DNA of 32,000 nt from Synechocystis sp. PCC 6803 substr. PCC-P (GCF_000284455.1 NC_017039.1:360001-392000), one strand, 5' to 3'. Numbered from the stretch's first letter, positions 4,997-28,057 are shown. Numbers and translations: made by a program. Notes: a model not told the origin generated them from the letters alone.

Positions 4997-5022
4997 TTCT
5001 TGTTTAAAGGTAGTCACTTTAC

Positions 5023-5040: not shown

Positions 5041-5076
5041 TATGTATAAAGAAATGTCGATTTTAGGTAATGAACG

Positions 5077-5621: not shown

Positions 5622-5691
5622 ATTTAAGATTGGCAAAAGTATTCAGCATAAACTGTTGATCACCGTTGCCACCGATGGGCGCATAAAATGA
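5620..5691 (+). pseudogene. Orphan 3-prime remnant of a second, diverged CmcI-family gene
   Basis: It reads EFKIGKSIQHKLLITVATDGRIK*, against the intact gene tail EFEIDKSIQHKLLITVAPDGYLKRLG* (4916-4996). About 46 of the first 60 nt are identical, and most differences are third-position. Coordinates +/-1. Confidence 0.7.
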
Positions 5692-5715
5692 ATTCACTAG
5701 ATTTGCTAAAATTCT

Positions 5716-7785: not shown

Positions 7786-7806
7786 AACTAGTTTACGTTT
7801 CATAAT

Positions 7807-8910: not shown

Positions 8911-9148
8911 AATAATTTTAACCAAGTAGGCCATGGCAGTTCAGCGAATGATTAAAATAAAAATATTTCTACTTTGCTTTAAAAGCAAGTATATGCTCTG
9001 ACATTGCTACTTATTGCGGCTCTGACTTCTTTATTGATAGTGATTTCAATTTATAAATGAGAATTCCTAAAGGCGATCAACTCTTAACACCAATCATGCT
9101 AACCGTATAAAATTACGAGAACTTAAATATTTATTTGCGAACGTTTAT

Positions 9149-10219: not shown

Positions 10220-10284
10220 TTTAATGGGTTTCTTCAAGAGGCAATCTAATCAATTAATATCCCAAACTTGGTCTACCCAATCTT

Positions 10285-11490
10285 ATGGATAAAAAGCAAT
10301 TAAAAATCTTAATGGTATTACATATGCCTTGGGACGCTAACTTAGGGGGACCCAAACCCCAAATGGAGTTAGCAAAAGAATTCTCTAGACAAGGACATAT
10401 TGTTGAAAAATTTGACTACTATGATGCTTTTCCTGAAATAAAATCCTTGCCACCAAAATTACTATGGCTTTATAGGCTATTTATGCCAAGTTTTTCACAG
10501 AGAGCCAAAGAATATATTCAAAAACATGCTAACTTTTTCGACATAATTGATGCTCAACAGGGTAATTTACCCTTTTCCAAAGAAGAATTAAAATTCAATG
10601 GAACCTTGATTGTAAGAAGCGTTGGATTATATGCTTTTCATCAACAATTTCAAGAGCTTGTGCAAAAAACATGGAACTTATCTGGTAATAACAATGTATT
10701 TAAATTGTTGCTGCGGAAATTACGCAAAATTAAACAGAAAAAGCAAAATCAAAATTATTTATTAAGCTTTCAAAAAGCAGACGGAATAATTTTGATAAAT
10801 TCTGATGAGTTAGCTTATGTTCGTGATGTTTTAAACTTAGGTGACAAATCTGTTTATTTACCAAATGGATTGACAGAAAAACAGCATCAAGATTTTTTCA
10901 GAGAATCTAAATTGCCTAAAATTAGGTTGATGAATCAACAAATTGTTTTTGTCGGTTCTTGGGGGAATGGTAAAGGGGCAAGAGATTGGCCTGCGATTAT
11001 TAATAAGGTTCGAAATAAACTTCCATTTGCTAATTTTTTATTCCTAGGTACAAGTGGATATTCAAGAAGTGGTGTAGAAGGAATCATGAAAGACTTAAAT
11101 TATCCTTCATCAGATTGTCTCAGGATTGTACCAAGTTATAAAAACGCTAATTTGCCAACTCTTCTAAGTGAAGCAACTGTAGGCGCTTTTCCAAGTTATA
11201 TAGAGGGATTTCCTACTTCTATTTTAGAAAAACTGGCATCTGGTTTACCTGTTATTGCTTACGATATTCCAGGTACAAGGGAAGCTTTACGTCGCTTTGA
11301 TAATTTACTATTAGTTCCCGCTGGAGATGTTGAACAATTTAGCCAAAAGCTCATAAACTTACTGTGTCTGGACGAGACAAGCTATACAGAGTTGTCAAAA
11401 CAGTGTGTTGAAGTTGCTCAAAGTTTTGATTGGTCGAGTATTGCCAATGAAACCTTGAATGCTTACCACGATTTTAGGAGTAAACAATGA
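10285..11490 (+). CDS. Glycosyltransferase family 4 (GT-B)
   Basis: 401-aa ORF with VFVGSWGNGKG and PSYIEGFPTSILEKLASGLPVIAYDIPGTRE. Confidence 0.8.
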   Translation: MDKKQLKILMVLHMPWDANLGGPKPQMELAKEFSRQGHIVEKFDYYDAFPEIKSLPPKLLWLYRLFMPSFSQRAKEYIQKHANFFDIIDAQQGNLPFSKEELKFNGTLIVRSVGLYAFHQQFQELVQKTWNLSGNNNVFKLLLRKLRKIKQKKQNQNYLLSFQKADGIILINSDELAYVRDVLNLGDKSVYLPNGLTEKQHQDFFRESKLPKIRLMNQQIVFVGSWGNGKGARDWPAIINKVRNKLPFANFLFLGTSGYSRSGVEGIMKDLNYPSSDCLRIVPSYKNANLPTLLSEATVGAFPSYIEGFPTSILEKLASGLPVIAYDIPGTREALRRFDNLLLVPAGDVEQFSQKLINLLCLDETSYTELSKQCVEVAQSFDWSSIANETLNAYHDFRSKQ

Positions 11491-12509
11491 CCCAGTCTTC
11501 CCCACCCAAAATCTTAGTTACAGGAGGAGCGGGTTATATTGGCTCCAGTGTTGTCCGCCAGCTCGGTGAAGCAGGATACAGCATAGTCGTATATGACAAT
11601 TGTTCGACTGGTTTTCCCAGTTCAATACTCTATGGTCAACTTGTCATTGGCGATCTTGCCGACACCGAACGTCTTCATCAGGTATTTCATGAGCATGAGA
11701 TACTTGCGGTAATGCATTTTGCTGGTAGCTTAATAGTTCCAGAATCTTTAATTCATCCTCTTAACTACTACGCAAACAATACTAGTAACACTCTCAGTTT
11801 AATACGATGTTGTCAGATATTTGGTGTAAACCGACTGATTTTTTCAAGTACTGCTGCTGTTTATGGTAACTCCTCGTCTAATCCCATATCTGAAGCCGAG
11901 ATTCCCTGTCCAATAAATCCCTATGGTCGATCAAAATTAGCCAGTGAATGGATAATTCAAGATTATGCAAAGTCCTCTGCTCTACAATATGTAATTCTAC
12001 GTTACTTTAATGTTGCAGGAGCTGATCCAGAGGGGCGTTTAGGGCAAATGTCGAAGACAACTACCCATTTAGTACGGTCGGTTTGTGACGCAATTCTGAA
12101 TCTTAAACCCTCGCTAGATATTTTTGGCACAGATTTTCCAACCCGTGATGGCACCGCTGTTCGTGACTATATTCACGTAGAAGACTTAGCTAAGGCCCAT
12201 CTAGATGCTCTTCGTTATTTAGAAAACGGGGGAGAAAGTCAAATTCTGAATTGTGGTTATGGTCAAGGCTATAGCGTACGAGAGGTGGTTGATCGAGCTA
12301 AAGCAATCTCTGGGGTTGATTTTTTGGTCAGAGAAACAGAAAGACGTTTGGGCGATCCAGCTTCAGTTATAGCCTGTGCAGACTCTATTCGCCAAGTGTT
12401 AAATTGGACACCAAAGTACAATAACTTAGATATTATTCTTCGCACCGCATTAGCTTGGGAAATTAAACGAAATAATTTAAATAACAGACGTATTCATAAT
12501 ATTATTTGA
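11487..12509 (+). CDS. galE: UDP-glucose 4-epimerase
   Basis: 340-aa ORF with ILVTGGAGYIGS, STAAVYG, YGRSKLASE (YxxxK) and RYFNVAGA. ATGA overlap with the upstream GT. Confidence 0.9.
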   Translation: MTQSSPPKILVTGGAGYIGSSVVRQLGEAGYSIVVYDNCSTGFPSSILYGQLVIGDLADTERLHQVFHEHEILAVMHFAGSLIVPESLIHPLNYYANNTSNTLSLIRCCQIFGVNRLIFSSTAAVYGNSSSNPISEAEIPCPINPYGRSKLASEWIIQDYAKSSALQYVILRYFNVAGADPEGRLGQMSKTTTHLVRSVCDAILNLKPSLDIFGTDFPTRDGTAVRDYIHVEDLAKAHLDALRYLENGGESQILNCGYGQGYSVREVVDRAKAISGVDFLVRETERRLGDPASVIACADSIRQVLNWTPKYNNLDIILRTALAWEIKRNNLNNRRIHNII

Positions 12510-12795
12510 AAAATATATAACGATTCTGCATAATACTTGAAAAAATATAGAAGTTATTTATCCACCGATTAACCATTAGATTTTCAGATTTGATCGAAGG
12601 TTATTATAGCTATTCTTGACTATCTAATAAATGCATGGAGGTTACTAAACAATTTTCTTAAAACACAAAATTTTCACATGAATTACTTAGCATAAGATTA
12701 AGCAACAAAAATACTTTTTCATCGTCACCAAATTGCACCTAGAAATCAAAATCGTTTATGTTTACTAAACAAATCTTAAAACTATAAATGAGTAT

Positions 12796-13644
12796 TTGTA
12801 TAAAAATATCATGAAAACAACTATTAACGACTACATTGGTCAATTTATCAAAACAACTCCTGAATTTAAAGGTAAATGGAGAATTATTAGATATTGGATG
12901 AATCAAAATAAAGACCATAGAACCAAATATAGAATATTGCCAGGCGGCGAAAAAATCCTATGTGATTTGAGTATTCCTTACGAAGCTATGGTTTACTTAA
13001 AAAGAGAGGAGCAAAAAGACTTAGAATTACTCACTCAATTATTGAAGCCGTCAGATACTTTTGTTGATTGTGGTGCAAATATTGGTATTTGGTCTTTAGT
13101 TGCTGCTTCTAGAGTGAGTTATTCTGGCAAAGTATATGCTTTTGAACCCAATCCATCAACTTTTTAAAAATTATCGGACAATGTATCTTTATCAAGATTT
13201 AAGAATGATATTAATTTGATCTCCCAAGCCGTGGGCAATGAACAAAAAACAGTATTTTTTGAGTGCAATACTACTCATAATATTTCTTGTATTAAAGACA
13301 ATGCAACGCGAGATACACAAGAAGTTTTTTTAACCACAATAGATCAAGTTTTAGACGGAGCTATTGTTAACGGTATTAAAATAGATGTTGAAGGTTTTGA
13401 GCTTGAATGTTTGCAAGGAAGCTACAAGACCTTAATTAGATATCAACCCTGGTTATGTGTCGAATTCAATACTTTGTTAGCCAAAGTCAGCAAGTTGTCA
13501 GAATGGAACGTACATAATTATCTAAAAAAGTTAGGCTATAGATGTCGTCATTTTCACAATGCCCTTGACAAAAGTCAAGAAACTATTTTGTCTGACAATT
13601 GGGAAACGAAAGGCTATTGTAACTTGTTTTATTTCATTGAATAA
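12796..13644 (+). pseudogene. FkbM-family methyltransferase interrupted by a premature stop (two ORFs in the same frame)
   Basis: ORFs 12796-13167 (FVDCGANIGIWSL, AFEPNP) and 13216-13644 (IKIDVEGFELECLQG) are the two halves of one FkbM-type domain. Both starts are congruent mod 3. The likely true start is ATG 12811. Confidence 0.7.
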
Positions 13645-13653
13645 AAAATAATT

Positions 13654-14511
13654 ATGGTGAATCAACAAGAAGAAATTAATTTAAGTGTTGCTTTAGTGAC
13701 TCGTAATCGTCCTGATAGCTTAGAGCGTTGTTTAAAAAGTTTGCGAGATCAGAAAGTTCAACCTTTTGAAGTCGTGGTTTCAGACGACTCAGATGATTTA
13801 TATAAGAGTTCAACCAAAGAGATTGCTCAAAAATGGGGATGCCGTTACATCGACGGACCAAAGCGGGGACTTTATGCTAATCGTAACTATGTTGCCTTAG
13901 CTTGTTACGGTACTCATATTCGCACAATGGATGATGATCATGAATTTCCTGAACAACATATCGAAGTTTGTTTAAATGCTATTCAGTCAGATCCATCTTC
14001 TATCTGGATTATTGGAGAATATTCGCCAACATCGTCTATCGAAAACGCCCCACATCCCTGTCCTGGTCAATTACATCCTCGTGGTTTTTCTTTCTATCCT
14101 AAAGACACTCAAAATTGTTGGGCGATCGCCGATGGTGCTAGTATTTATCCGAAGAAAATTTTTGCATCAGGTTTAAGATTTGTTGAATACTATAAGTTTG
14201 GTGCTTCTTACTTAGAATGGGGGAGTCGTTTATATTATTTAAGCTATCGCATACGTCATTTAGATTCTACCTATATTATTCATCATTTTAATCCTAAAGC
14301 TCGGTCATTTTCTGACCAAGAAATGGATCAATCATCCAGATTTTTTGCGATGTTATGTCATTCGTTTCTATATCAATCAACTTTTAAAAATAAATGTCTA
14401 TTTTCCTATGAAATTTTGAAGCAATTTATTCTTGACCCAAAATTAACCATTAAATGCATAATAAATTCATGGTCAAATTTCGAATTATTTTCTAGGTCTT
14501 TTTGTGCTTAA
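13654..14511 (+). CDS. Glycosyltransferase family 2-like
   Basis: 285-aa ORF with LSVALVTRNRPDSLERCLKSLRDQKVQPFEVVVSDDS and MDDDH. Confidence 0.75.
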   Translation: MVNQQEEINLSVALVTRNRPDSLERCLKSLRDQKVQPFEVVVSDDSDDLYKSSTKEIAQKWGCRYIDGPKRGLYANRNYVALACYGTHIRTMDDDHEFPEQHIEVCLNAIQSDPSSIWIIGEYSPTSSIENAPHPCPGQLHPRGFSFYPKDTQNCWAIADGASIYPKKIFASGLRFVEYYKFGASYLEWGSRLYYLSYRIRHLDSTYIIHHFNPKARSFSDQEMDQSSRFFAMLCHSFLYQSTFKNKCLFSYEILKQFILDPKLTIKCIINSWSNFELFSRSFCA

Positions 14512-14520
14512 ATTTTAAAG

Positions 14521-14542
14521 GCTCAAAGTTTTTATTTTGAGC
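14521..14542 (+). terminator. Candidate intrinsic terminator hairpin
   Basis: GCTCAAA-GTTTTTAT-TTTGAGC (7-bp stem, 8-nt loop) lies 10 nt after the stop at 14511, followed by TATATTT. AT-rich, so only a modest call. Confidence 0.4.
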
Positions 14543-14645
14543 TATATTTAAAATCGAATAAATTTGATATGCATTGGCATGATCATAACACTTATTTTGT
14601 AAAGACTTTGCTTTACCACTTGGATAGTATAACCACTTAAAAACC

Positions 14646-15452
14646 ATGAGAAAAATTTTTTGTCAGAATGATTGGCCTGATAGCTGGAAATATAGTTATC
14701 CATACGATTTATTGGAAGTTTATGGTTCATTAAAGTTTCCTGGTTATGCTTATGCTTATGAAAGCCGAAGAAAGCATACATTAAATTTGATTAAGAGTGT
14801 CGCTAGGCCTGGAGCCAGAATTCTAGATGTAGCTGCGGCACAAGGCAATTTTACGTTAACACTAGCAGAAATGGGATACGAGGTTACTTGGAATGATTTA
14901 CGCGAAGAATTAATTGATTATGTCAAACTAAAATGGGAGTCAGGTACTGTTAACTATGCACCAGGAAATATTTTTGATTTGAATTTTGACGGGCAATTTG
15001 ACGTGGTTTTGATTGCGGAAGTAATCGAACATGTTGCTCATCCTGATAATTTCTTGAAAAATATTGCCAAAATGCTTAAGCCAGATGGTCATATTGTCTT
15101 AAGTACCCCTAATGGAGAGTATTTCAAAAATCATTTACCTAGATTTTCTGACTGTTCTGATCCTAGTCAATATGAAAAAATGCAATTTCAACCAAACTCA
15201 GATGGACATATTTTTTTACTTCATTTAGACGAGGTTGAACAACTAACACATCAAGCAGGATTAGTTATTAAAGAAGCTAGACTGGTGACTAATTCATTAA
15301 CAAATGGCCATATTAAACTACATTATTTATTAAAGTTTTTACCCAAGTCTTGGATTTTAGTTTTTGAAAATGTAACTTGCTCTATGCCCTTATCGATAAA
15401 GCGTAAATTGCACACGACAACCCTTGTTTTGTTGTCGCATAAGAGTGAATAA
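14646..15452 (+). CDS. Class I SAM-dependent methyltransferase
   Basis: 268-aa ORF with ILDVAAAQGNFTLTLAEMGYEV, DVVLIAEVIEHVAHP and GHIVLSTPN. Confidence 0.8.
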   Translation: MRKIFCQNDWPDSWKYSYPYDLLEVYGSLKFPGYAYAYESRRKHTLNLIKSVARPGARILDVAAAQGNFTLTLAEMGYEVTWNDLREELIDYVKLKWESGTVNYAPGNIFDLNFDGQFDVVLIAEVIEHVAHPDNFLKNIAKMLKPDGHIVLSTPNGEYFKNHLPRFSDCSDPSQYEKMQFQPNSDGHIFLLHLDEVEQLTHQAGLVIKEARLVTNSLTNGHIKLHYLLKFLPKSWILVFENVTCSMPLSIKRKLHTTTLVLLSHKSE

Positions 15453-18992: not shown

Positions 18993-19939
18993 TAGTCACT
19001 TCAATTAACGATGAGAGAATTTAATGTAAAATTATGGGGTGTACAAAATGAACAGGTTTAAACAATGGCTTACAGTTTAGATTTAAGGCAAAGGGTAGTA
19101 GCTTATATAGAAGCTGGAGGAAAAATAACTGAGGCTTCCAAGATATATAAAATAGGAAAAGCCTCGATATACAGATGGTTAAATAGAGTAGATTTAAGCC
19201 CAACAAAAGTAGAGCGTCGCCATAGGAAATTAGACTGGGAAGCTCTAAAAAAAGACGTAGAAGAAAATCCCGATGCAAGATTGATAGACAGAGCCAAGAA
19301 ATTTGGAGTGAGGCCGAGTGCCGTATATTACGCATTAAAGAAAATGAAAATAAACAGAAAAAAAAAAGAACTACGTTATCGAGAAAGAAACCGGGAGGAA
19401 CGAGTTAAGTACTATAGAATGTTAAGAGAACTAATCAAGCTCTATGGTAGTCAAGCTATAGTTTACATAGATGAATCTGGATTCGAAGCAATCCAGGCTT
19501 GTATTTATGCCTGGTCAAAAAAAGGAAAAAAAGTTTATGGAGATAGACAAGGAAAAAGGGGAGTCAGAGAAAATCTAGTAGCAGGGAGAAGAAAAGGAAA
19601 AAAAGATTTGATTGCACCGATGGTTTTTACTGGGAGTTTGAATGCAGAAGGCTTTGAAGGATGGTTAAAATTATATTTACTACCCTCCCTCGACATTCCA
19701 TCAATATTAATAATGGATAATGCTCCTATTCATCGTAAAACTGCCATTAAAGAATTGGCTAAAGAAGCAGGTCATGAAGTTCTTTTTTTGCCGAAATATT
19801 CTCCTGATTTAAATGATATTGAGCATGACTTTAGTGCCTTGAAACGAGCTAGAATGTACGCTCCTATTGACACGTCTCTTGATGAAATTATCCGTTCTTA
19901 CTGTGGCGTTTAGCGTCTCAGCCTTATTTGAAACTACTA
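18993..19939 (+). mobile_element. IS630/Tc1-mariner-family insertion sequence (ISY100-like), 947 bp, with TA target-site duplication
   Basis: TA at 18991-18992 and at 19940-19941. Imperfect terminal inverted repeats: TAGTCACTTCAATTAACG versus the reverse complement TAGTAGTTTCAAATAAGG (13/18 match). One 282-aa transposase ORF fills the element. Confidence 0.9.
19065..19913 (+). CDS. IS630-family (DDE) transposase
   Basis: 282-aa ORF. N-terminal HTH-like region (GKASIYRWLNR), then VYIDESGF and ILIMDNAPIHRK....LFLPKYSPDLNDIEH (DDE/D motif context). Confidence 0.95.
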   Translation: MAYSLDLRQRVVAYIEAGGKITEASKIYKIGKASIYRWLNRVDLSPTKVERRHRKLDWEALKKDVEENPDARLIDRAKKFGVRPSAVYYALKKMKINRKKKELRYRERNREERVKYYRMLRELIKLYGSQAIVYIDESGFEAIQACIYAWSKKGKKVYGDRQGKRGVRENLVAGRRKGKKDLIAPMVFTGSLNAEGFEGWLKLYLLPSLDIPSILIMDNAPIHRKTAIKELAKEAGHEVLFLPKYSPDLNDIEHDFSALKRARMYAPIDTSLDEIIRSYCGV

Positions 19940-20029: not shown

Positions 20030-21175
20030 ATGCCTAGAAACCTCAAAGTTCACCTTTGGTTGCCTAATATTTTCCAGTTTAAAGGAGGAATTCAAGTTTA
20101 TTGTGCTTTTTTGATCGAAGCTTTACAGGAAGTCTATCCAAATGCCTTCTATGATGTCTTTTTAAAACATGATACCCATTACACGCCTAATGTAAGAGTT
20201 TTGCCTGAAACTAAATTTCATTATGGAGGAAATATTCCTCTAAAATTGAGAACTTTTTATTTTGCTCTCTTATTATTTATCAGTAGCTTCCAAAAAAGAC
20301 CAGATTTAATTATTTGCGGCCATGCTAATTTCACTCCTGTAGCTCATTTGGTTCAACGATTAATGGGTATTTCTTACTGGACAGTGGCCCATGGAGTAGA
20401 TGCCTGGAACCTCCAAAATCCGCATATCATTCAAGCTTTGCGCCATGCTGACCGAATTCTGGCCGTTAGTCACTACACCCGCGATCGCCTCCTCCAGGAA
20501 CAAGCTCTTGATCCAGAGAAAGTTGTTGTTCTTCCTAATACCTTTGATACTTCACGCTTTCAAATTGCCCCGAAACCCCAATCTTTACTCGAAAAATATA
20601 ATCTCACCCCAGATCAGCAGGTTATTTTGACCATTGCCAGATTAGCTGGGGAAGAACGTTATAAAGGCTATGACCAAATTATCCGTGCTTTACCAGAGAT
20701 TATTAAAACTATTCCCAATATCCATTACCTAATCGGCGGTAAAGGAGGCGATCGCCCTAGAATCGAAAAACTAATTCAAGATCTAGACTTAGAAGATTAC
20801 GTTACCCTAGCAGGATTCATCCCCGACGAAGAACTAGCCGATCACTATAACCTCTGTGATGTTTTCGCCATGCCTAGTAAAGGGGAAGGTTTTGGTATTG
20901 TGTATCTAGAAGCCATGGCCTGCGGAAAACCCACCATTGGTGGTAATCAAGATGGGGCGATCGATGCTCTATGCAATGGCGAACTGGGAGTGTTAGTGAA
21001 TCCCGATGATCTGGACGAAATTAGCACAGTAATTACCCAAATCCTAGAAAAGACCTATCCCTTACCAATTCTCTATCAACCAGAAACTCTCCGGCAAAAA
21101 GTGATTGAAATTTATGGATTTGAGCAGTTTAAACAAAATTTAGCTCAACTTTTATCTGCTCAATTCAACCAGTAA
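20030..21175 (+). CDS. Glycosyltransferase family 4 (GT-B)
   Basis: 381-aa ORF with LTIARLAGEERYKGYD and MPSKGEGFGIVYLEAMACGKPTIGGNQDGAIDAL. Confidence 0.85.
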   Translation: MPRNLKVHLWLPNIFQFKGGIQVYCAFLIEALQEVYPNAFYDVFLKHDTHYTPNVRVLPETKFHYGGNIPLKLRTFYFALLLFISSFQKRPDLIICGHANFTPVAHLVQRLMGISYWTVAHGVDAWNLQNPHIIQALRHADRILAVSHYTRDRLLQEQALDPEKVVVLPNTFDTSRFQIAPKPQSLLEKYNLTPDQQVILTIARLAGEERYKGYDQIIRALPEIIKTIPNIHYLIGGKGGDRPRIEKLIQDLDLEDYVTLAGFIPDEELADHYNLCDVFAMPSKGEGFGIVYLEAMACGKPTIGGNQDGAIDALCNGELGVLVNPDDLDEISTVITQILEKTYPLPILYQPETLRQKVIEIYGFEQFKQNLAQLLSAQFNQ

Positions 21176-21176
21176 T

Positions 21177-22337
21177 ATGAGAATTTCACACATAATTGCA
21201 GACTTGGCCCCTGAAGCAGGGGGGCCATCCATAACTGTTACCAATTTGACTGATGCCCTTTCCCACCAGAACTTCACCGAAGTTACTCTTTTGAGCCAAT
21301 GCTTAACAGATAGCTCAGTTGTTGCTCCTGCTCCAAACTCTAAAGTTAATCGAATCATTGTAAACAGCTCTCACAGAATTGCCCTATCCCTAGGATTGCC
21401 ATTAAATAACCTACTCCGCTCCCGTTTAAGCTCTTACCCGTCCGACATTATCCATGGCCATGGCCTGTGGCATCCGATTAGCTATTGGAGGAGTCAAACT
21501 GCCAAGCAATATAACATTCCCCTAGTTATCCATCCTAGAGGCATGCTCGAACCCTGGGCCCTCAACTACCGTAAATTCAAAAAACGGATTGCCCTATGGC
21601 TCTATCAAAATCGTGATCTACAACGGGCTCAAATACTGTTTGCCACAGCCAACCAGGAAGCCCAGAGTCTTCGTCATTTTGGTCTGCGTCAGCCTATAGC
21701 TATTACTCCCAACGGCATTCTTTTCCCCACGCTAGAATCTCAAGCATCTCCTCCGGAATCATCACGCCACCGAACAGCTCTATTCCTCAGTCGCATTCAT
21801 CCCAAAAAGGGATTAATGAACCTAATCCAAGCCTGGCATCAAGTTTCCCCCCCAGACTGGCAACTACTCATTGCTGGCCCCAACGAAAATAATCACCGTG
21901 CTGAAGTTCAAGCCCAAATCAAACAACACCAATTAGAGCAAACGATCAAAATCCTTGACTCTGTGGAGGGAGAAGCCAAAGCCAACCTTTACCGTCAGGC
22001 TGATCTGTTTATTCTGCCCACCTTTAGTGAAAACTTTGGCGTCGTAGTTGCCGAAGCCCTTTCCTATGGCATTCCCGTCATCACCACCACTGGGACTCCC
22101 TGGCAAGATCTCCAAACTTACCGTTGTGGTTGGTGGGTAGAACCGACAGTTGCGACTATTGCCGATGCTCTCCAGCAAGCAACAATTCTACATCCCCAGG
22201 AATTACGAACTATGGGGGAAAGAGGTAGAGCATACGTCAAATGCTACGACTGGAATGCCATCGCCCAGGACACCCTTGCCGTTTACCGCTGGATTCTGAA
22301 TCAGGGACCAAAACCTGACTGCGTTATCTTGGACTAG
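21177..22337 (+). CDS. Glycosyltransferase family 4 (GT-B)
   Basis: 386-aa ORF with LFLSRIHPKKGL and LPTFSENFGVVVAEALSYGIPVITTTGTPWQDL. Confidence 0.85.
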   Translation: MRISHIIADLAPEAGGPSITVTNLTDALSHQNFTEVTLLSQCLTDSSVVAPAPNSKVNRIIVNSSHRIALSLGLPLNNLLRSRLSSYPSDIIHGHGLWHPISYWRSQTAKQYNIPLVIHPRGMLEPWALNYRKFKKRIALWLYQNRDLQRAQILFATANQEAQSLRHFGLRQPIAITPNGILFPTLESQASPPESSRHRTALFLSRIHPKKGLMNLIQAWHQVSPPDWQLLIAGPNENNHRAEVQAQIKQHQLEQTIKILDSVEGEAKANLYRQADLFILPTFSENFGVVVAEALSYGIPVITTTGTPWQDLQTYRCGWWVEPTVATIADALQQATILHPQELRTMGERGRAYVKCYDWNAIAQDTLAVYRWILNQGPKPDCVILD

Positions 22338-22341
22338 AGCC

Positions 22342-22395
22342 ATGGCAAGTTTTCTAGCTTTACTGCCCCGCTCCCTGACGACGTTTCCCTTATGA
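22342..22395 (+). repeat. Head block copy 1: 17-codon leader ORF MASFLALLPRSLTTFPL*, truncated by the hicBA cargo
   Basis: Codons 1-15 encode the same peptide as copies at 23300, 24277 and 24980, differing only by synonymous changes. The stop TGA overlaps the hicB ATG (TTATGA). Confidence 0.8.
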
Positions 22396-22646
22396 AAAAA
22401 GTAACCATGACAGTCACTCCCAAGCAAATTTATAACTATACTGTTCTTCTAGAAAAAGAGCTTGATGGCGGTTATCACGCCTTTTGCCCAATGCTCAAAG
22501 GATGCCATTCCCAAGGAGACACCTTTGAAGAAGCCATACAAAACATTACAGAGGCTATTGAACTATACATTGAAAGCTTGATAGCCGAACATCAGCCCGT
22601 TCCTAAGGAAGATTTAATTGTCAAACCATTGAGTATTTTGGTGTGA
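22392..22646 (+). CDS. hicB: HicB-family antitoxin
   Basis: 84-aa ORF with GGYHAFCPMLKGCHSQGDTFEEAIQNITEAIELYIESL, a typical HicB N-terminal domain. GTGA overlap with hicA. An alternative start is ATG 22407. Confidence 0.85.
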   Translation: MKKVTMTVTPKQIYNYTVLLEKELDGGYHAFCPMLKGCHSQGDTFEEAIQNITEAIELYIESLIAEHQPVPKEDLIVKPLSILV

Positions 22647-22873
22647 GCAATCTTCCAAGCGTCCAAGCCAAAGATTTTATTCGAGTAATCAAAAAGCTCG
22701 GATTTTTTCTGGAGCGCCAGAAAGGGAGCCATGCCATTTATAAAAATACCCAGGGTAATCGAGTTGTGGTTCCCATCCATCCCGGAAAAGATTTAAAGCA
22801 GGGGACACTGATGGGCATGATTAAAGATATTGGACTTGAAAAAGAAAAATTTTTTGACTTACTACAAAAATAG
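22643..22873 (+). CDS. hicA: HicA-family mRNA-interferase toxin
   Basis: 76-aa ORF with KDFIRVIKKLGFFLERQKGSHAIYKN.....VVVPIHPGKDLKQGTLMGMIKDIGL, a typical HicA. Confidence 0.85.
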   Translation: MSNLPSVQAKDFIRVIKKLGFFLERQKGSHAIYKNTQGNRVVVPIHPGKDLKQGTLMGMIKDIGLEKEKFFDLLQK

Positions 22874-22884
22874 TAATTTGTGTG

Positions 22885-22935
22885 ATCGCTCATTTGCTTA
22901 GCTTCCTCCAGGAGTACGGTGAATAAATAGGCGAT
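22885..22935 (+). repeat. Tail block copy 1 (...LLSFLQEYGE* plus ATAGGCGATC), orphaned downstream of hicA
   Basis: Aligns with the 3-prime ends of ORFs 23300-23794 and 24980-25390. The last 9 codons are identical in amino-acid sequence and differ only at synonymous sites. Confidence 0.75.
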
Positions 22936-23266
22936 CAACGTCAACGACGTGGCCCAGGCCCACGTTCTCGGATTAACTTACCTTTTGCAGGGGGGAGCTA
23001 CCAACATCTTTAACCTCGGTAATGGCAATGGCTTCTCTGTGCGGGAAATGATTGCAACAGCCCAGTTAGTCACCAATCGCCCCATTCCCGTGCTACAAGG
23101 CGATCGCCGTCCGGGAGACCCCCCGATTTTAGTGGGCAGCAGTGAAAAAGCTCGGCAAATCCTCGGTTGGCAACCCCAATATCCCCTGGCAAAAGATATT
23201 CTGACCCATGCCTGGGCTTGGCACCAACAACGCCATGGCGATAATTCCCCATGCACACAACCGTAG
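22936..23266 (+). pseudogene. 3-prime third of a second UDP-glucose 4-epimerase gene (galE stump)
   Basis: It reads (I)NVNDVAQAHVLGLTYLLQGGATNIFNLGNGNGFSVREMI...GDPPILVGSSEKARQILGWQPQY, collinear with residues ~225-330 of the intact GalE at 11487-12509. No N-terminal Rossmann part. The left junction abuts tail block 1. Confidence 0.8.
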
Positions 23267-23287
23267 CAATGGCGATCGCCAGTTAGC

Positions 23288-23299
23288 TAAACTGTAACC
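23288..23299 (+). promoter_or_regulatory. Candidate -10 box TAAACT placed 6 nt before the unit ATG (possible leaderless transcript)
   Basis: The same geometry recurs at 24265-24276 (TAAACT) and 24968-24979 (TAAAAT). No Shine-Dalgarno sequence precedes these ATGs. Motif-and-spacing argument only. Confidence 0.3.
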
Positions 23300-23794
23300 A
23301 TGGCAAGTTTTCTGGCTTTACTGCCCCGTTCATTGACCACTTTCCTTTATGCCGTTGCGGCCCTACTGAGGTTTTATGGCAACATCGACACCACCCCCAT
23401 CCCCCGAATCCCCCTCACCATCTTTGGATGGAGCTTCCTGGCGTTCACGTTGGGCACAGCGGCTCTCCTGGTTAATCTCGGCCTTGAGTGGAACACTGGA
23501 AATCGAAGCCGAAACCGAGAGATTGAAACAAGAGAACGCGAAACTCGACGAGATAATCTTGCAGACGAAGAAAGAAACCGAGCGTCTGAGGAAAGAGAAA
23601 AAGCCGATCGAGAAAGAGATCGAGCAGATCAAGAAAGAAACCGAGCAGATCAGGAAAGAAAACGAGCGGCTAGCCGTGCTCGAATCCAAAATCGAGGATT
23701 TGTTCTCCAAACACGGTATCAACTTGCCCCTAGCCCAGAAGCCAGAGCAACCCTAATCGATTTCCTTAGCTTTCTCCAGGAATACGGCGAATAA
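23300..23794 (+). CDS. Intact unit 2: small membrane protein with hydrophobic N-terminus, one clear TM helix and a charged heptad-repeat tail (unknown family)
   Basis: 164-aa ORF. TM segment IPLTIFGWSFLAFTLGTAALLVNLGL, then R/D/E/Q-rich 7-aa repeats, ending LIDFLSFLQEYGE. Paralog at 24980-25390. The N- and C-terminal codons differ from the paralog only synonymously. Confidence 0.6.
   Translation: MASFLALLPRSLTTFLYAVAALLRFYGNIDTTPIPRIPLTIFGWSFLAFTLGTAALLVNLGLEWNTGNRSRNREIETRERETRRDNLADEERNRASEEREKADRERDRADQERNRADQERKRAASRARIQNRGFVLQTRYQLAPSPEARATLIDFLSFLQEYGE
23376..23756 (+). other. Alternative +1-frame ORF inside unit 2 encoding a heptad coiled coil (candidate overprinted gene or frameshift product)
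   Basis: 126 codons: ...EIEAETERLKQENAKLDEIILQTKKETERLRKEKKPIEKEIEQIKKETEQIRKENERLAVLESKIEDLFSKHGINLPLAQKPEQP*. ATG and stop are conserved in the paralog (25056-25352). Several paralog differences are synonymous in this frame but not in the annotated frame. Confidence 0.35.
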
Positions 23795-23816
23795 ACGGCG
23801 AGCTTGATAATCTTGA

Positions 23817-24053
23817 ATGAAATTTACCCAATATTTTTTAGCTACCAGACAAAGACCAGATCGGTTAATTATTCACTTGGAGTGGATAGAATACACTATG
23901 AACAATCCTCTCAAGGAAGAAATTCAAACAGACGGTAGAATCAAATTATGGGCTTCCATCCCGGAAATGGAAGGTAGATATCTGCGTGTAGTTTTATTGT
24001 CAGATCGAGAAACTGTCCATAATGCATTTTTTGACCGCTCCTTCAAACCATGA
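23817..24053 (+). CDS. Small TA-like protein (DUF4258-like; family name from memory, moderate certainty)
   Basis: 78-aa ORF with RPDRLIIHLEWIEYTMNNP....DGRIKLWASIPEMEGRYLRVVLLSDRETVHNAFFDRSF. ATGA overlap with the downstream DUF2283-like ORF. Confidence 0.55.
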   Translation: MKFTQYFLATRQRPDRLIIHLEWIEYTMNNPLKEEIQTDGRIKLWASIPEMEGRYLRVVLLSDRETVHNAFFDRSFKP

Positions 24054-24247
24054 AGATTAAGTACTTTACTGATACAGATACCCTTTATATTGAATTTCAG
24101 TCTGCCAATATTGTCGAAACCAGGGATTTGGACGATAACACTTTAATTGACATTGACATGCACGGAAATGTCTGTGCCATAACCATTGAACACGCTCAAC
24201 AAAGAACCAATATTCCTAACATCTCGTTCGAGCAGATTGTGGCATAG
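24050..24247 (+). CDS. DUF2283-like small protein (putative partner of the upstream ORF)
   Basis: 65-aa ORF with MKIKYFTDTDTLYIEFQSANIVETRDLDDNTLIDIDMHGNVCAITIEHA, the typical DUF2283 pattern. Confidence 0.6.
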   Translation: MKIKYFTDTDTLYIEFQSANIVETRDLDDNTLIDIDMHGNVCAITIEHAQQRTNIPNISFEQIVA

Positions 24248-24276
24248 GGCGATCGCCGGTTAGCTAAACTAAGACT

Positions 24277-24336
24277 ATGGCAAGTTTTCTGGCCCTACTG
24301 CCCCGGTCCTTGACCACTTTCCTTTATAGCGAATAA
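24277..24336 (+). repeat. Collapsed unit 3: head block fused directly to the last 9 nt of the tail block (19-codon ORF MASFLALLPRSLTTFLYSE*)
   Basis: 17 head codons, then AGCGAATAA (compare GGCGAATAA at 23786-23794). Preceded by GCGATCGCC-GGTTAGCTAAACT as in unit 2. The Uma2 ATG follows 6 nt after the stop. Confidence 0.75.
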
Positions 24337-24342
24337 TTCCCC

Positions 24343-24975
24343 ATGACCCTCACCGTTGCCATTCCCCGCATTGAGATCGCCCCTGGTAGTCATTTAACTA
24401 TCCCCAATGTATCCTGGGTAGACTTTATCTCTTTGCTAAAAGAACTCGGAGAAAAACGTCATTCCCGACTCGCTTACTATCAAGGCCGACTGGAAATCAT
24501 GGCTCCCCTGGCCCTACATGAAAAACCAAATCGTCTGATTACCGATATCGTCAAAGCTATTTTGGAATGCCAAGAGCGCGACTGGGAAGACTTTGGCTCC
24601 ACCACCCTTAAACAGCCTCCCTTCGCTGGCATAGAACCAGATAGCTGTTTTTACATCCAAAATGCATCCCAGATGCGGGAATACAAAAACCTTGATCTGA
24701 ATCAATCTCCCCCCCCAGATTTAGCAATTGAATGCAATTTAAGCTCCAAAACCGTCATCGATGCGTACCAAGCCATTGGCGTTCCTGAAGTGTGGATTTA
24801 TAGCAACAATCAACTACAAATTTACCTTTATTCAGAACAAGGTTATTTAGAAAGCAACCAAAGTCAAGTTTTTCCAGATTTGGCCGTAATGTCAATGATT
24901 CCCCAACTAATTCAAAAAGCTTACCAAGTTGGCACAAGGCAAATGTTGGGTGAGTTGAAGGCACAGCTAAAATGA
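24343..24975 (+). CDS. Uma2-family (DUF820, PD-(D/E)xK-fold) putative endonuclease
   Basis: 210-aa ORF with YYQGRLEIMAPLALHEKPNRLITDIV, EPDSCFYI, PDLAIECNLSS and YQAIGVPEVWIY. Confidence 0.8.
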   Translation: MTLTVAIPRIEIAPGSHLTIPNVSWVDFISLLKELGEKRHSRLAYYQGRLEIMAPLALHEKPNRLITDIVKAILECQERDWEDFGSTTLKQPPFAGIEPDSCFYIQNASQMREYKNLDLNQSPPPDLAIECNLSSKTVIDAYQAIGVPEVWIYSNNQLQIYLYSEQGYLESNQSQVFPDLAVMSMIPQLIQKAYQVGTRQMLGELKAQLK

Positions 24976-24979
24976 ACCT

Positions 24980-25390
24980 ATGGCAAGTTTTCTAGCCTTA
25001 CTGCCCCGCTCCCTGACCACTTTCCTTTATGCTGTGGCGGCCCTACTGAGATTTTATGGCAACATCGACACCACCCCCTTCCAACTCATCCCCCTCACCA
25101 TCCTCGACTGGAGTTTCCTGGCGTTCACGTTGGGCACAGCGGCTCTCCTGGTTAATCTCGGCCTTGAGTGGAACTCTGGAAATCGAAGCCGAAACCGAGC
25201 AGATCAGGAAAGAGACAGAACAGATCAAGAAAGAGACCGAGCAGATCAGGAAAGACAACGAGCGGCTCGCCGTGCTCGAATCCAAAATCGATTCTTCCTT
25301 CGACCAACACGGTATCAACTTACCCCTAGCCCAGACACCAGAGCAGCCCTAATCGATTTCCTCAGTTTCCTCCAGGAATACGGGGAATAA
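24980..25390 (+). CDS. Intact unit 4: paralog of 23300-23794 (membrane protein with a shorter heptad-repeat tail)
   Basis: 136-aa ORF with the same N-terminus, TM helix and LIDFLSFLQEYGE end. Exactly 84 nt (four 21-nt repeats) shorter than unit 2. Confidence 0.6.
   Translation: MASFLALLPRSLTTFLYAVAALLRFYGNIDTTPFQLIPLTILDWSFLAFTLGTAALLVNLGLEWNSGNRSRNRADQERDRTDQERDRADQERQRAARRARIQNRFFLRPTRYQLTPSPDTRAALIDFLSFLQEYGE
25056..25352 (+). other. Alternative +1-frame ORF inside unit 4 (coiled-coil reading), paralog of 23376-23756
   Basis: 98 codons: ...EIEAETEQIRKETEQIKKETEQIRKDNERLAVLESKIDSSFDQHGINLPLAQTPEQP*. Three near-perfect 21-nt repeats at about 25200-25262. Confidence 0.35.
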
Positions 25391-25466
25391 ATAGGCGATC
25401 GCCCAACCCTTTCCCAACATACTCATTGTTAAGATTGACTAGTCCCCCGTTGCCTGTGAAATAACC

Positions 25467-26012
25467 ATGGTTACCCTGCTGAAATGGACAGTTCCAGACT
25501 ATCACCACCTCATTGAACAGGGGCTATTGGACGGTAAGAAAGTGGAACTTTTAGACGGAGACCTAGTGACCATGGCTCCCGAAGGACCACTCCATAGCTA
25601 CACCACCACCACCGTTGCCGACTATCTGCGCCAAAACCTGCACGGATTAGCTCTAGTGAGGGAAGCCCATCCCATTACCCTGAGTCAATCTGAACCGGAA
25701 CCTGACATTGCCATTGTTCTAGCTCCCCAGGAGCGCTACAAAGAAAGGCATCCTCAGGCCGACGATATTTTTTGGTTAATTGAAATAGCTAACAGTACCC
25801 AAGCCTACGACCTCAACGACAAAAAACAAATCTACGCTCAAGAAGGCATCCCCGAATATTGGGTGGCAGACCTAAGCAAACGCCAATTATTTATTTTTCG
25901 AGCACCAGACAAAGAAGATTATCGCCTGCAACAAACCCACTCCGAAGGTATCATCCGTAGCCAAGCCTTTCCCGAAATAAAAATATCAGTACAAGAAATG
26001 TTCCATTGGTAG
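25467..26012 (+). CDS. Uma2-family (DUF820) putative endonuclease
   Basis: 181-aa ORF with VELLDGDLVTMAPEGPLHSYTTTTV, EPEPDIAIV, WLIEIANST and YAQEGIPEYWVADL. Confidence 0.85.
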   Translation: MVTLLKWTVPDYHHLIEQGLLDGKKVELLDGDLVTMAPEGPLHSYTTTTVADYLRQNLHGLALVREAHPITLSQSEPEPDIAIVLAPQERYKERHPQADDIFWLIEIANSTQAYDLNDKKQIYAQEGIPEYWVADLSKRQLFIFRAPDKEDYRLQQTHSEGIIRSQAFPEIKISVQEMFHW

Positions 26013-26027
26013 CTCTCCGACCATTGG

Positions 26028-26058
26028 CCAAACTGAAACCATGGCAAGTTTTCTGGCC
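26028..26058 (+). repeat. Head block copy 5 (fragment): CCAAACTGAAACC-ATGGCAAGTTTTCTGGCC, marking the right edge of the array
   Basis: Matches the first ~18 nt of the unit ORF plus 13 nt upstream. Homology then ends (short ORF MASFLAVFLLLCFW*). Confidence 0.65.
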
Positions 26059-26176
26059 GTATTCTTGCTCCTTTGTTTTTGGTAACCAACTGAGCGACCG
26101 CAGCATTCTCCCAAATTCTAAATAAATTCCGTTGTTTTTGCTGTCGAACCAGTTAATTTTGGCGTAAATTATTACC

Positions 26177-26719
26177 ATGCAACTTAATCAATACCAGCAA
26201 GGAGAATATCACCCTGGAGCCCCGCTGTTTAAACAATTGCTATGGTATTCCATTGGGGATTTTTTAGTCCAAACGCCCCTACTGCCCATGGCCAGGCTGA
26301 AGGTAGCTATCCTGCGATTATTCGGGGCCAAAATTGGTACAGGAGTTAATATCAAACCCCACGTCAAGATCAAATTCCCTTGGCGGCTAACCCTGGGCAA
26401 TTACGTTTGGCTGGGGGAAAAATGTTGGATTGATAACCTCGCCCCGGTTACCATTGAGTCCCATGTGTGTATTTCCCAGGGCGTTTACCTATGCACTGGC
26501 AACCACGATTGGAGTAAACCCAGCTTTGACCTAATCACCAGTCCGATTCACATCGCCGCTGGCAGTTGGATCGGTGCTAGCGCCGTTATTGGACCTGGAG
26601 TACGGGTGAATGAAAAGGCAGTTTTGACTTTGGGGTCTGTGGCTGTCAAAGATTTGGCGGCTATGACCATCTACTCTGGCAATCCCTGTCAGCCGGTCAA
26701 AAAACGGCAACTCCTCTGA
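26177..26719 (+). CDS. WcaF-like hexapeptide-repeat (LbH) polysaccharide O-acetyltransferase
   Basis: 180-aa ORF with LWYSIGDFLVQTPLLPMARLKVAILRLFGAKIGTGVNIKP...GNYVWLGEKCWIDNLAPVTIESHVCISQGVYLCTGNHDW. Confidence 0.85.
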   Translation: MQLNQYQQGEYHPGAPLFKQLLWYSIGDFLVQTPLLPMARLKVAILRLFGAKIGTGVNIKPHVKIKFPWRLTLGNYVWLGEKCWIDNLAPVTIESHVCISQGVYLCTGNHDWSKPSFDLITSPIHIAAGSWIGASAVIGPGVRVNEKAVLTLGSVAVKDLAAMTIYSGNPCQPVKKRQLL

Positions 26720-26782
26720 AATTACGCCAGGTAAAAACTAACTTTTGTTGTTAGTACCTTTAGGGATTTGATCTAATTATTG

Positions 26783-28057
26783 ATGAAGCTAACCATTCTT
26801 AACCAATTTTATCCCCCTGACTATGCGGCCACGGGGCAACTGCTAGAAGAACTGTCCATCGAACTGTCCAAAAAAGAGCTTGATGTGCAAATTTTTGCTG
26901 GGCAACCGGGTTATGCATTTGATCAGGAACTTGCCCCATCCCAGGAAGTCTCTCAGGGAGTTTTGATCAGAAGAACTAGGACTTCCCGCCTCTGGCCCCA
27001 GAGATTACGGGGGCGGGCGATCGCCGGAATTTTGTATTGTTTACGCGCCATCGTCAAACTCAGATTAGGGAGCAGACTGGGGGATTTGATTCTTGTTACT
27101 ACAGAGCCTCCCTACCTAATGGTGGTGGCCTATATCCTGCATTTGTTATACAAAAAACCCTATATCTGCCTGATTTATGATCTCTACCCCGATGTGGCAG
27201 TGAAGTTGGGGGTGGCGAAGGAAAAGGATGCCATTGTTAAATTGTGGCGTTGGCTAAATCGTTTAACTTGGCAAAAGGCAGAGGCTATTATTGTGCTCAG
27301 CGAGAGCATGGCTAAGGTGATCGCGGACCAACAACCAGCCCTAGCAGGGAAAATTGAGGTGGTCCATAACTGGGCGGATGGAGTGTTAATCCAACCAAGG
27401 GCCAAAGCTGATAACTGGTTTGCCCAACGCCATGGCTTGGACCGGACATTTACCGTACTGTATTCCGGTAATCTGGGACGGTGCCACGACCTGGAAACTG
27501 TTATGGAAGCGGCTCGCCTACTGCAGCAAGAAGAAGTCCAGTTTGTTTTTATTGGAGCTGGTGCTAAGGCCCCAGTCTGTCAAGAATTCGTACAACGCCA
27601 CCAGTTAACTAATTGTTTATTTTTGCCCTTCCAACCCAAGCCGGTTTTGCCCTTTTCCCTCACCGCCTGCGACCTGAGCTTGGTTTCCATTTTGCCCCAG
27701 GTGGAAGGGCTGGTGGTCCCGAGCAAATTCTATGGCTGTTTGGCCGCAGGCACGGCGATCGCCGCCATTTGTCCCCCCCATTCCTATTTACGGGAAATTA
27801 TTGCCGAAGCTCAATGTGGAGCAACCATTGATAACGGAGACGGGGCAGGATTGGCTCAATTTATCCTTCAACTTAAGAATAATCCCCGCCGAACAGCAAC
27901 CATGGGGCGTCGAGGCCGCCAATATTTTGAAGAAAACTTTACCCTGGACACCATTGCGGACCAATACCTATCTGTCATTACTAAAGTGGGCGATGAAGAA
28001 GTCGCCAAGCTCCAAGCAAATAAATTCTGTAACCATCCTGACTCAAGCTTGCTTTAA
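26783..28057 (+). CDS. Glycosyltransferase family 4 (WcaI-like)
   Basis: The track ORF starts at TTG 26780; ATG 26783 is preferred. Motifs: ILNQFYPPDYAATGQLLEEL, VLYSGNLGRCHDL, VVPSKFYGCLAAG. Confidence 0.85.
   Translation: MKLTILNQFYPPDYAATGQLLEELSIELSKKELDVQIFAGQPGYAFDQELAPSQEVSQGVLIRRTRTSRLWPQRLRGRAIAGILYCLRAIVKLRLGSRLGDLILVTTEPPYLMVVAYILHLLYKKPYICLIYDLYPDVAVKLGVAKEKDAIVKLWRWLNRLTWQKAEAIIVLSESMAKVIADQQPALAGKIEVVHNWADGVLIQPRAKADNWFAQRHGLDRTFTVLYSGNLGRCHDLETVMEAARLLQQEEVQFVFIGAGAKAPVCQEFVQRHQLTNCLFLPFQPKPVLPFSLTACDLSLVSILPQVEGLVVPSKFYGCLAAGTAIAAICPPHSYLREIIAEAQCGATIDNGDGAGLAQFILQLKNNPRRTATMGRRGRQYFEENFTLDTIADQYLSVITKVGDEEVAKLQANKFCNHPDSSLL

Follow-up and report, generated by a model that had tools for sequence, protein, structure and literature searches.

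How did a toxin–antitoxin (TA) pair of Synechocystis sp. PCC 6803 come to lie between the head and the tail of a repeated unit, and what does it owe to these flanks? The pair is hicBA (ssr1765/ssr1766), catalogued as a HicB/HicA TA system by Kopfmann et al. 2016 (PMC4963859), and the stretch analyzed here, hereafter the window, comprises 32,000 nucleotides (nt) of the chromosome (NC_000911.1, 360001-392000). The original prediction, made from the sequence alone, had proposed that head and tail act as cassette boundaries or recombination arms, with hicB translationally coupled to a conserved leader. Our analysis indicates that the flanks are the two ends of a dead gene of the slr1079 family, that hicBA is transcribed and probably also translated from this remnant, and that the arrangement most probably arose by ordinary deletions in a variable island.

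Window positions correspond to published coordinates after subtraction of 360000, an offset that was checked against ssr1765 (382392-382646), ssr1766 (382643-382873) and slr1082 (384980-385390). A ~40-kb genomic island has been described here, which is absent from PCC 6714 and mostly transcribed as a single 22-gene unit (PMC4963859; PMC4195498); the Pfam assignments of its large open reading frames (ORFs) in the window are those of a glycosyltransferase, methyltransferase and epimerase island. The hypervariable end of this island, at 22.3-26.2 kb, carries an array of slr1079-type gene-in-gene modules, each with a membrane protein L and an out-of-frame partner S that would neutralise it, interspersed with small genes of the selfish or defence type, namely hicBA, a DUF2283 pair and Uma2 nucleases.

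The modules themselves have been described in a 2026 preprint (bioRxiv 10.64898/2025.12.20.695498), which reports that slr0489, slr1079 and slr1082 each encode a long protein L, which carries a signal peptide as well as a transmembrane segment, and a short, internal out-of-frame protein S. According to this source, Ribo-seq backs the translation of all three genes, peptides were found for Slr0489L/S, Slr1079L/S and Slr1082S, and in pull-downs L recovers S and S recovers L, for slr0489 as well as for slr1079; Slr0489L retards growth when produced without Slr0489S, so that the authors call the system toxin-antitoxin-like. The mRNA of slr1079 is leaderless (PMC4195498). For comparison, we gathered ~100 related loci from genomes and metagenomes.

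The two ends of an L gene around hicBA

The repeats that flank hicBA are genuine. A 29-nt head probe starting at 22342 has four copies in the window with at most three mismatches (22342, 23300, 24277 and 24980), and a 27-nt tail probe has three, ending at 22926, 23794 and 25390, with 0 expected in shuffles in both cases; a fifth, shorter head lies at 26041. The units are protein-coding genes and not non-coding repeats. The ORF at 23300-23794 (+ strand), our reference for head and tail, encodes an L of 164 amino acids (aa) that matches Slr1079 of Synechocystis sp. PCC 6803 with 100% identity, and it houses a nested S ORF (23376-23756) in the +1 frame. The second intact unit, slr1082 (24980-25390, +), identified by homology and by its published coordinates, encodes an L of 136 aa and an S at 25056-25352.

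The first unit of the window (unit 1) retains only the extremities of such a gene. Its head stub (22342-22395, +) corresponds by homology to the first ~52 nt of an slr1079-type L gene, preserves the L N-terminus (MASFLALLPRSLTTFLY...) with a transcription start site (TSS) at -4, and now reads as a 17-codon ORF (MASFLALLPRSLTTFPL, then a stop codon) whose TGA (22393-22395) overlaps the hicB ATG (22392-22394). Compared with intact heads, it has one base more (ACGACGTTTCCC vs ACCACTTTCCT), and it is because of this extra base that the TGA falls in frame. The tail stub (22892-22926, +) encompasses the last 11 codons and the stop of an L gene (..LLSFLQEYGE) and hence keeps the conserved L C-terminus (..DFLSFLQEYGE), with LSFLQEYGE and the stop codon at 22897-22926. 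Head and tail stand in one reading frame, with 582 nt between ATG and stop codon, and they are respectively 94% and 91% identical to the head and tail of one and the same intact unit of strain CACIAM 05. The tail and the 13 nucleotides downstream of it (ATAGGCGATCAAC, 22927-22939) match the tail and flank of an intact 129-aa unit situated 5' of GalE in S. salina LEGE 06099, after which the PCC 6803 sequence jumps into GalE at a deletion junction.

It was therefore right that hicBA stands in place of a unit interior with both ends kept, but the dimensions first given require correction. Since the intact units total 495 and 411 nt, the missing interior amounts to ~325-410 nt, and not to 390-470 nt. 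Likewise, the tail is real, but it does not resume 11 nt after the hicA stop: its firm homology starts only at 22892 (ATTTGCTTAGC...), and the preceding HIP1-like GTGATCGC (22882-22889) more likely represents the 3' flank of hicBA. Indeed, HIP1 or HIP1-like sites follow hicA in relatives, with GCGATCGC at the same 8-nt offset 3' of hicA in Picosynechococcus PCC 73109 and GTGATCGC directly 3' of hicA in a Dolichospermum relative.

No anchor match to the membrane segments or to the central 7-aa repeat region of L was found 3' of the unit 1 head, where hicBA fills the space, and no S-like ORF exists between 22342 and 22926. Having lost its membrane segments, its heptad-repeat region and the whole S frame, unit 1 is a remnant and not a working module. 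We conclude that it is a dead module, of which ~52 nt of the 5' end and 35 nt of the 3' end remain around an old resident hicBA (22395-22889).

Expression of hicBA from the remnant

Both gene overlaps of the original prediction hold, as do the gene identities. The antitoxin gene hicB (ssr1765; 22392-22646, +) encodes 84 aa matching PF15919 (E 5.3e-12), and the toxin gene hicA (ssr1766; 22643-22873, +), which matches PF07927 (E 2.1e-21), starts with a GTG that overlaps the hicB stop (GTGA, 22643-22646). The HicA domain is complete (residues 9-65 vs profile positions 1-58 of 58), and HicB matches only positions 1-59 of the 123-position PF15919 profile; the domain search found no C-terminal DNA-binding domain in HicB, as is typical of short cyanobacterial HicB. 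The HicB of this pair has 586 homologs at E < 1e-10, many of them named HicB by their sources.

The published TSS of the hicBA mRNA (genome 382338 F, table in PMC4963859) falls at 22338 (+), 4 nt 5' of the stub ATG and 54 nt 5' of the hicB ATG, so that the stub constitutes the entire 54-nt leader of this mRNA. A proteogenomic table lists the coding sequence 382392-382646, flagged as an extension to RefSeq, with the peptide VTMTVTPK (bioRxiv 10.64898/2025.12.20.695498). As this peptide, preceded in the sequence by MKK, can only derive from a protein starting 5' of 22407, the start at 22392 is used. It adds five residues (MKKVT) to the canonical start of relatives, located 5 codons later at 22407; most HicB homologs among the 120 matches listed are 79 aa long, with 94% query cover, and align from this second methionine. 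HicA itself was detected with seven peptides, including the N-terminal SNLPSVQAK (bioRxiv 10.64898/2025.12.20.695498).

Where does the start codon come from? An A-run just 3' of 22394 is conserved 5' of hicB in PCC 73109 and Dolichospermum (TCAAAAAA(A)CG), which places the beginning of the hicBA cassette most likely at 22395. In that case, ATG 22392 would be the unit's own out-of-frame ATG, which in slr1079 lies at 23349-23351 in the S frame. From this alignment, the hicB start in use thus appears to have been contributed by the remnant, right at the junction of head and cassette.

No purine-rich ribosome-binding sequence resembling a Shine-Dalgarno (SD) motif is evident before ATG 22392, and the stub ORF is nearly leaderless, which makes termination-reinitiation a reasonable mechanism. 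Ribosomes would probably enter at the stub AUG, which has hardly any leader, terminate at the UGA and resume at the overlapping AUG, and hicA would be translated next through the GUGA overlap. Of the initial claim that hicB depends on the leader, expression from the remnant and use of ATG 22392 are borne out by the TSS and by VTMTVTPK, and translational coupling is plausible. We thus consider hicBA to be transcribed, and its translation probably initiated, from the unit 1 remnant.

A scan of 22200-23400 for consensus promoters and terminators returned no promoter at the unit 1 head and no terminator after hicA or the tail, which leaves the published TSS as the sole promoter evidence for hicBA. 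A -10-like TATCTT (22325-22330), just 5' of the TSS, lies within the last codons of a GT4 glycosyltransferase gene, probably slr1077 (21177-22337, +; PF00534/PF13439). Its ortholog in locus L007 is 67% identical, shares the C-terminus KPDCVILD and is also directly followed by a unit fragment. On the strength of a GTTA.CT..ACT similarity between the sequence 5' of the unit 1 head and the unit promoters, we had envisaged a unit promoter inherited at this head, and we rejected it when the L007 ortholog revealed conserved glycosyltransferase coding sequence. RNA folding did not distinguish the leader (z = 0.34), the tail region (z = -1.46) or an intact head (z = -0.20) from shuffled sequences, the fold of 22865-22960 pairing only two HIP1-like palindromes, and an Rfam scan of 21000-27000 with E up to 1 gave a single, meaningless match.

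Comparative loci and reconstructable junctions

A counterpart of the locus was found in the syntenic glycosyltransferase island of Picosynechococcus PCC 73109, which reads unit, three genes, unit, a 145-nt spacer, hicBA, 22 nt and a hexapeptide acetyltransferase gene. In this island, hicBA stands beside an intact unit and not inside one. Nucleotide identity between PCC 6803 and PCC 73109 is 79% for hicBA and ~80% for the units, which means that hicBA and the units have adjoined each other throughout the divergence of the islands and that hicBA is no fresh insert. Among the sister strains of PCC 73109, PCC 7003 and 8807 display unit-unit-acetyltransferase and PCC 11901 unit-acetyltransferase; the slot of hicBA in PCC 73109 hence holds a second unit in 7003 and 8807. 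In PCC 73109, an imperfect ~45-nt direct repeat (GGCGATCGCCTTTTTTGTCTTCGGCC...; L040, 5857-5920 and 6476-6540) surrounds hicBA. It derives from the region just 5' of the acetyltransferase gene, which is in single copy in strains 8807 and 11901, and hints at how hicBA entered that slot.

Within Synechocystis, S. salina LEGE 06099 exhibits, in order, a unit (143 aa), DUF29, a unit (129 aa), an intact GalE (335 aa), a unit (178 aa), MNT, HepT, Uma2, a head stub and the acetyltransferase gene. In L007, the 3' part of one unit comes directly after the glycosyltransferase ortholog, and an intact unit comes next. In S. salina LEGE 00031 (L014), one unit is split by an insertion sequence (IS), and orphan tails and a 5'-truncated unit adjoin DUF29, MNT/HEPN and Uma2 genes. 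Truncated units next to other small genes are common at other loci as well.

At least five scar-like junctions lie between 22.3 and 26.2 kb of the window, namely head 1/hicBA, hicA flank/tail 1, tail flank/GalE, GalE end/Uma2 5' stub and head 3/Uma2, and two of them can be reconstructed from arrangements still extant in other strains. The first is head 3/Uma2. CACIAM 05 is 98.6% identical to PCC 6803 from 24321 rightwards. At the place of head stub 3 (24277-24336, +), which in PCC 6803 breaks after codon 17 and runs into the sequence upstream of the Uma2 gene (24343-24975), CACIAM 05 carries a complete unit and a spacer of ~70 nt, followed by the same Uma2 gene. The CACIAM 05 unit reads CTTTCCTTTAT followed by GCC and its spacer AAACCTTTTT followed by AGCAAATAA, whereas PCC 6803 joins CTTTCCTTTAT to AGCGAATAA; read from these sequences, the junction is a ~530-nt deletion at an imperfect CCTTT.T similarity. 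The bases GCGAATAA 3' of head 3 had been considered as the last bases of a tail, a possibility rejected when CACIAM 05 showed them to be the upstream flank of the Uma2 gene itself. The second is tail 1/GalE, a ~715-nt deletion relative to LEGE 06099 with an ATC microhomology. The sequence beyond it (22940-23266, +; a 105-aa ORF) represents the 3' third of a GalE-like epimerase, with a weak PF16363 C-terminal match and 90% nucleotide identity to L043 2535-2843; this match lies within the intact 335-aa GalE gene of LEGE 06099, which identifies the segment as a 5'-truncated gene fragment.

Origin of the arrangement

As the neighbouring junctions are reconstructable deletions, unit 1 is most simply explained if such deletions also affected one or several units beside an old hicBA. 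We therefore favour, as the probable though by no means certain explanation, decay by ordinary deletions in a variable island, which placed hicBA behind the 5' end of a unit. Deletions at short similarities would have cut back the unit(s) on either side: a first one starting in the T-rich stretch around codon 17 of L (CTTTCCTTTATG) and ending immediately 5' of the A-run that precedes hicB, a second one from the HIP1 site 3' of hicA to a similar patch, ATTTCCTTAG, in a tail, and a third one through which the 5' two-thirds of the next gene, GalE, would have been lost.

Several observations weigh against this account or parts of it. Neither of the possible direct precursors, a unit-spacer-hicBA-spacer-unit order or a complete unit flanked by the slr1077 ortholog and GalE, was found in any strain, so that one-unit and two-unit origins are indistinguishable. 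Head 1 and tail 1 are both closest to one CACIAM 05 unit, which a single parent fits equally; the left junction is ambiguous within ~10 nt and head 1 has its extra base; and the breaks of four independent head truncations all fall within codons 15-19, a clustering beyond what one would expect of simple random deletion. As to expression, the hicBA TSS has its -10 region within the conserved coding part of the glycosyltransferase gene, without clear homology to the promoters of intact units, which makes the inheritance of a unit promoter no more than conjectural, and the searched supplementary tables of the preprint contain no entry at the coordinates of the 17-codon stub ORF (bioRxiv 10.64898/2025.12.20.695498).

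A possible but clearly less probable alternative is that a single unit stood between the glycosyltransferase gene and GalE, and that illegitimate recombination put hicBA into it, either by replacement or by insertion followed by loss of the interior, both stubs then stemming from one gene. The common CACIAM 05 relative of head and tail and their shared reading frame speak in its favour, as do the unit directly after the slr1077 ortholog in L007, the one unit before GalE in LEGE 06099, and the hicBA of PCC 73109 in the slot of a whole unit. However, at 35-52 nt the stubs are not long enough for their parentage to be traced, and paralogs probably exchange sequence, gene conversion among units being likely. 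L007 also has two units after the glycosyltransferase gene, hicBA carries no mobility signals, the only extant relative has it outside a unit, behind the 145-nt spacer, and the adjacent junctions are documented deletions.

The preferred deletions leave the clustering of head breaks to be considered. Off contig ends, truncated heads break at residues 15, 15-16, 17-18 and 19 in four independent events, namely head 1, head 3, the stub on the acetyltransferase side in PCC 7339/LEGE 06099, and L013 in the distant LVE1205-1; the other breaks fall at residues 23, 26, ~47 (twice) and ~55. A rough scan-type estimate gives p near 0.01 for the cluster, in a search by tblastn that is blind to head stubs shorter than ~13-15 codons. 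The motif concerned, CTTTCCTTTAT, is one of the few T-rich stretches in the purine-rich L gene and has CCTT in common with the joined flanks; the similar patch ATTTCCTTAG marks the tail break. Moreover, longer S-less fragments of the toxic membrane protein L may be counter-selected.

A bolder interpretation, which we deem unlikely, sees in the 5' end of the L/S module (leaderless start plus 15-19 codons to CTTTCCTTTATG, with the internal out-of-frame ATG) a recurrent, recombinase-independent platform for capture and expression. Deletions or template switches would be channelled to, or selected at, the CTTTCCTTTATG motif, and selfish or defence genes (hicBA, Uma2, the acetyltransferase operon) would be repeatedly fused behind a ready-made TSS and ribosome entry site. 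If true, this would account for the survival of truncated heads after the rest of the toxic module is gone, in Synechocystis as well as in the distant LVE1205-1.

Truly functional boundaries, as first proposed, are less probable still. Head and tail would then be sites for site-specific exchange or dedicated homology arms, through which genes are swapped and expressed from a conserved leader, in the manner of an integron without attC. Truncated heads do precede three different genes of the window (hicBA, Uma2 and acetyltransferase), the four similar breaks occur in two distant lineages, units are located at mosaic borders, where strain-specific parts of the island meet shared ones, and a TSS is mapped at the stub. 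Yet a Pfam scan of all large ORFs of the 32-kb window found no integrase or other site-specific recombinase (IntI-type), only an IS630 DDE transposase, and no inverted repeats or target-site duplication bound hicBA at 22392-22892. The head-plus-tail pair around a foreign gene occurs once in ~100 loci, the L014 case being an IS insertion, and other heads are truncated elsewhere, from codon 23 to ~55. The conservation of head and tail is explained by their coding for L, a family conserved at the protein level, and the TTTCC.TTA-like motifs on both sides of hicBA are native parts of every intact unit. The CCTT shared with the joined flanks is what microhomology deletions would give, while the tblastn detection floor and possible selection against longer S-less L fragments both shift the visible breaks to codons 15-19. 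With the neighbours being plain deletions and hicBA an old neighbour of the units, we consider a role as cassette boundaries or recombination arms very improbable. Finally, a chance or low-complexity likeness around a hicBA in an ordinary intergenic region can be practically dismissed, as nothing beyond the T-richness of part of the motifs argues for it, against four and three probe matches where shuffles predict 0.00, 91-94% identity to intact CACIAM 05 units, and a tail flank orthologous to that of a unit in LEGE 06099.

The L/S family beyond unit 1

The slr1079 family counts 392 database matches, those named by their sources belonging to Synechocystis, Picosynechococcus and other cyanobacteria. 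L proteins are mostly 129, 136, 143, 150, 157, 164, 171 or 178 aa long, in 7-aa steps that result from a variable copy number of a 21-nt repeat. The second frame of the units reads as a heptad coiled coil (EIEAETERLKQENAKLDEIILQ), matching the published report of an L/S gene within a gene, and both frames are open and similar in the distant genome of Cyanobacteria bacterium LVE1205-1 (L009, CP089922.1). There, at least 12 tandem units, repeating every ~1 kb and separated by conserved spacers of ~450 nt, extend from 3900 to 15400. In 6 of these 12 units, one and the same ~25-nt gap interrupts the match in the mid-region, a gap that goes with an extra segment shifting the L frame in the units at 5911 and 7061, which we read through. 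At least 10 more dispersed unit loci exist in LVE1205-1 outside the tandem array.

In intact units, the conserved out-of-frame ATG at L codon 17/18 opens a 6-codon mini-ORF (MPLRPY and a stop; 23349-23369 and 25029-25049) in the S frame, which ends 6 nt 5' of the S start; LVE1205-1 keeps the S frame open from this point onward. This mini-ORF may help ribosomes to reach the S start on a leaderless mRNA. PADLOC had no match for HicA, HicB or L, and its S matches were coiled-coil noise; a search of a plasmid collection found no units and only one distant match to hicB.

Other stubs and genes of the window

Head stub 5 (26041-26085, +), degenerate and located 5' of the hexapeptide acetyltransferase gene (26177-26719), retains in PCC 6803 a match over its first 18 nt alone, with longer versions at the same place in PCC 7339, LEGE 06099 and LEGE 00031. 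A head stub before the acetyltransferase gene is thus common to four Synechocystis strains (26041-26085; L042 11180; L043 5263; L014 14460), which marks it as an old remnant.

Between GalE and slr1079, ~30 nt at 23241-23270 resemble (77%) the segment 24333-24362, where the Uma2 gene begins with its first codons after the upstream flank, and, judging by this similarity, are probably the stub of a lost Uma2 copy. Uma2 genes adjoin units at every Synechocystis locus examined; those of the window (24343-24975; 25467-26012) match the PADLOC candidate defence families PDC-S17 (1e-35) and PDC-S03 (4e-18). Between unit 2 and head stub 3, a 78-aa ORF without Pfam match (23817-24053) and a DUF2283 ORF (24050-24247) share an ATGA overlap and look like another small two-gene TA-like module.

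HIP1 (GCGATCGC) or HIP1-like sites at 22882-22889, 22930-22936, 23239-23244, 23271-23280, 24248-24257 and 25395-25404 lie at or beside several deletion junctions and after most unit tails, which may be a coincidence of an abundant motif or reflect a preferred point of breakage or repair. Further inside the glycosyltransferase island are a PemK/MazF toxin gene (5274-5621; the published slr1062 TA locus) and the IS630-family DDE transposase gene (19065-19913), 3 kb from hicBA.

Comparison with known systems

As a type II HicAB system, hicBA is classical in its HicA (PF07927) and HicB (PF15919), its overlapping genes in one operon with the antitoxin first, its single upstream TSS, the detection of both proteins by mass spectrometry and its location in a genomic island, where chromosomal TA pairs are usually found. 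It departs from the type by its short cyanobacterial HicB with no evident DNA-binding domain, by a promoter-proximal leader that is the remnant of another gene, and by a start 5 codons 5' of the usual start of the family. With the slr0489/slr1079/slr1082 family, unit 1 has in common the homology of its stubs to the L gene ends and a TSS essentially at the L start, as in the leaderless slr1079; unlike them, it lacks the two membrane segments, the region of heptad repeats and the entire S frame. The searched text of the preprint, which lists three loci, makes no mention of the three stubs of the window (bioRxiv 10.64898/2025.12.20.695498).

Like integron cassettes, the small unrelated genes here are tightly packed in the same orientation, some after a recurring upstream sequence with a TSS. 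In contrast to integrons, no integrase or attC-like sites occur (no attC-like imperfect inverted repeats flank hicBA), what recurs is coding sequence, namely the 5' end of a gene family, and the junctions look like deletion scars. On the recurrence of boundaries the picture is mixed: heads precede three different genes with similar breaks, and the head-plus-tail pair around foreign DNA was seen once. The lack of terminal inverted repeats and of a target-site duplication at 22392-22892 also sets the locus apart from a transposable element or miniature inverted-repeat transposable element. There is likeness to deletion-made remnants and promoter capture in variable islands, such as defence/TA islands and the ends of O-antigen clusters: a truncated GalE, a Uma2 5' stub and three unit stubs lie within 4 kb, junctions fall at short similarities and HIP1 sites, and the content varies by strain. 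What differs is that one toxin-antidote module was displaced by another, and that the junction appears to have made a start codon in use, overlapped by the stop of a near-leaderless mini-ORF.

Implications

Unit 1 with hicBA is a variant arrangement of known elements that arose via ordinary processes. The TA pair and its TSS were already published, and the L/S family is described in the preprint. New are the position of hicBA inside the remnant of an L/S module, which supplies its leader and most likely the start codon in use, the three head stubs of the window, the arrays of up to at least 12 tandem copies, and the occurrence of the family in a conserved slot 5' of the acetyltransferase gene, in islands of two genera.

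For PCC 6803, this accounts for the odd 5' end of hicBA in a model organism, with a TSS lacking a recognizable promoter of its own, an extended HicB that differs from RefSeq and no SD-like run, and it identifies at least two annotated or annotatable ORFs as remnants (the GalE fragment and the stub ORFs). It also documents one toxin-antidote module taking over the place and the expression signals of another. The cluster of breakpoints at codons 15-19 is a candidate for a deletion hotspot or for selection against S-less L fragments. As for the L/S family, the three loci of a single strain become part of a widespread set, which is organized in arrays and is consistently tied to the variable end of glycosyltransferase islands and to other genes of the TA and defence type.

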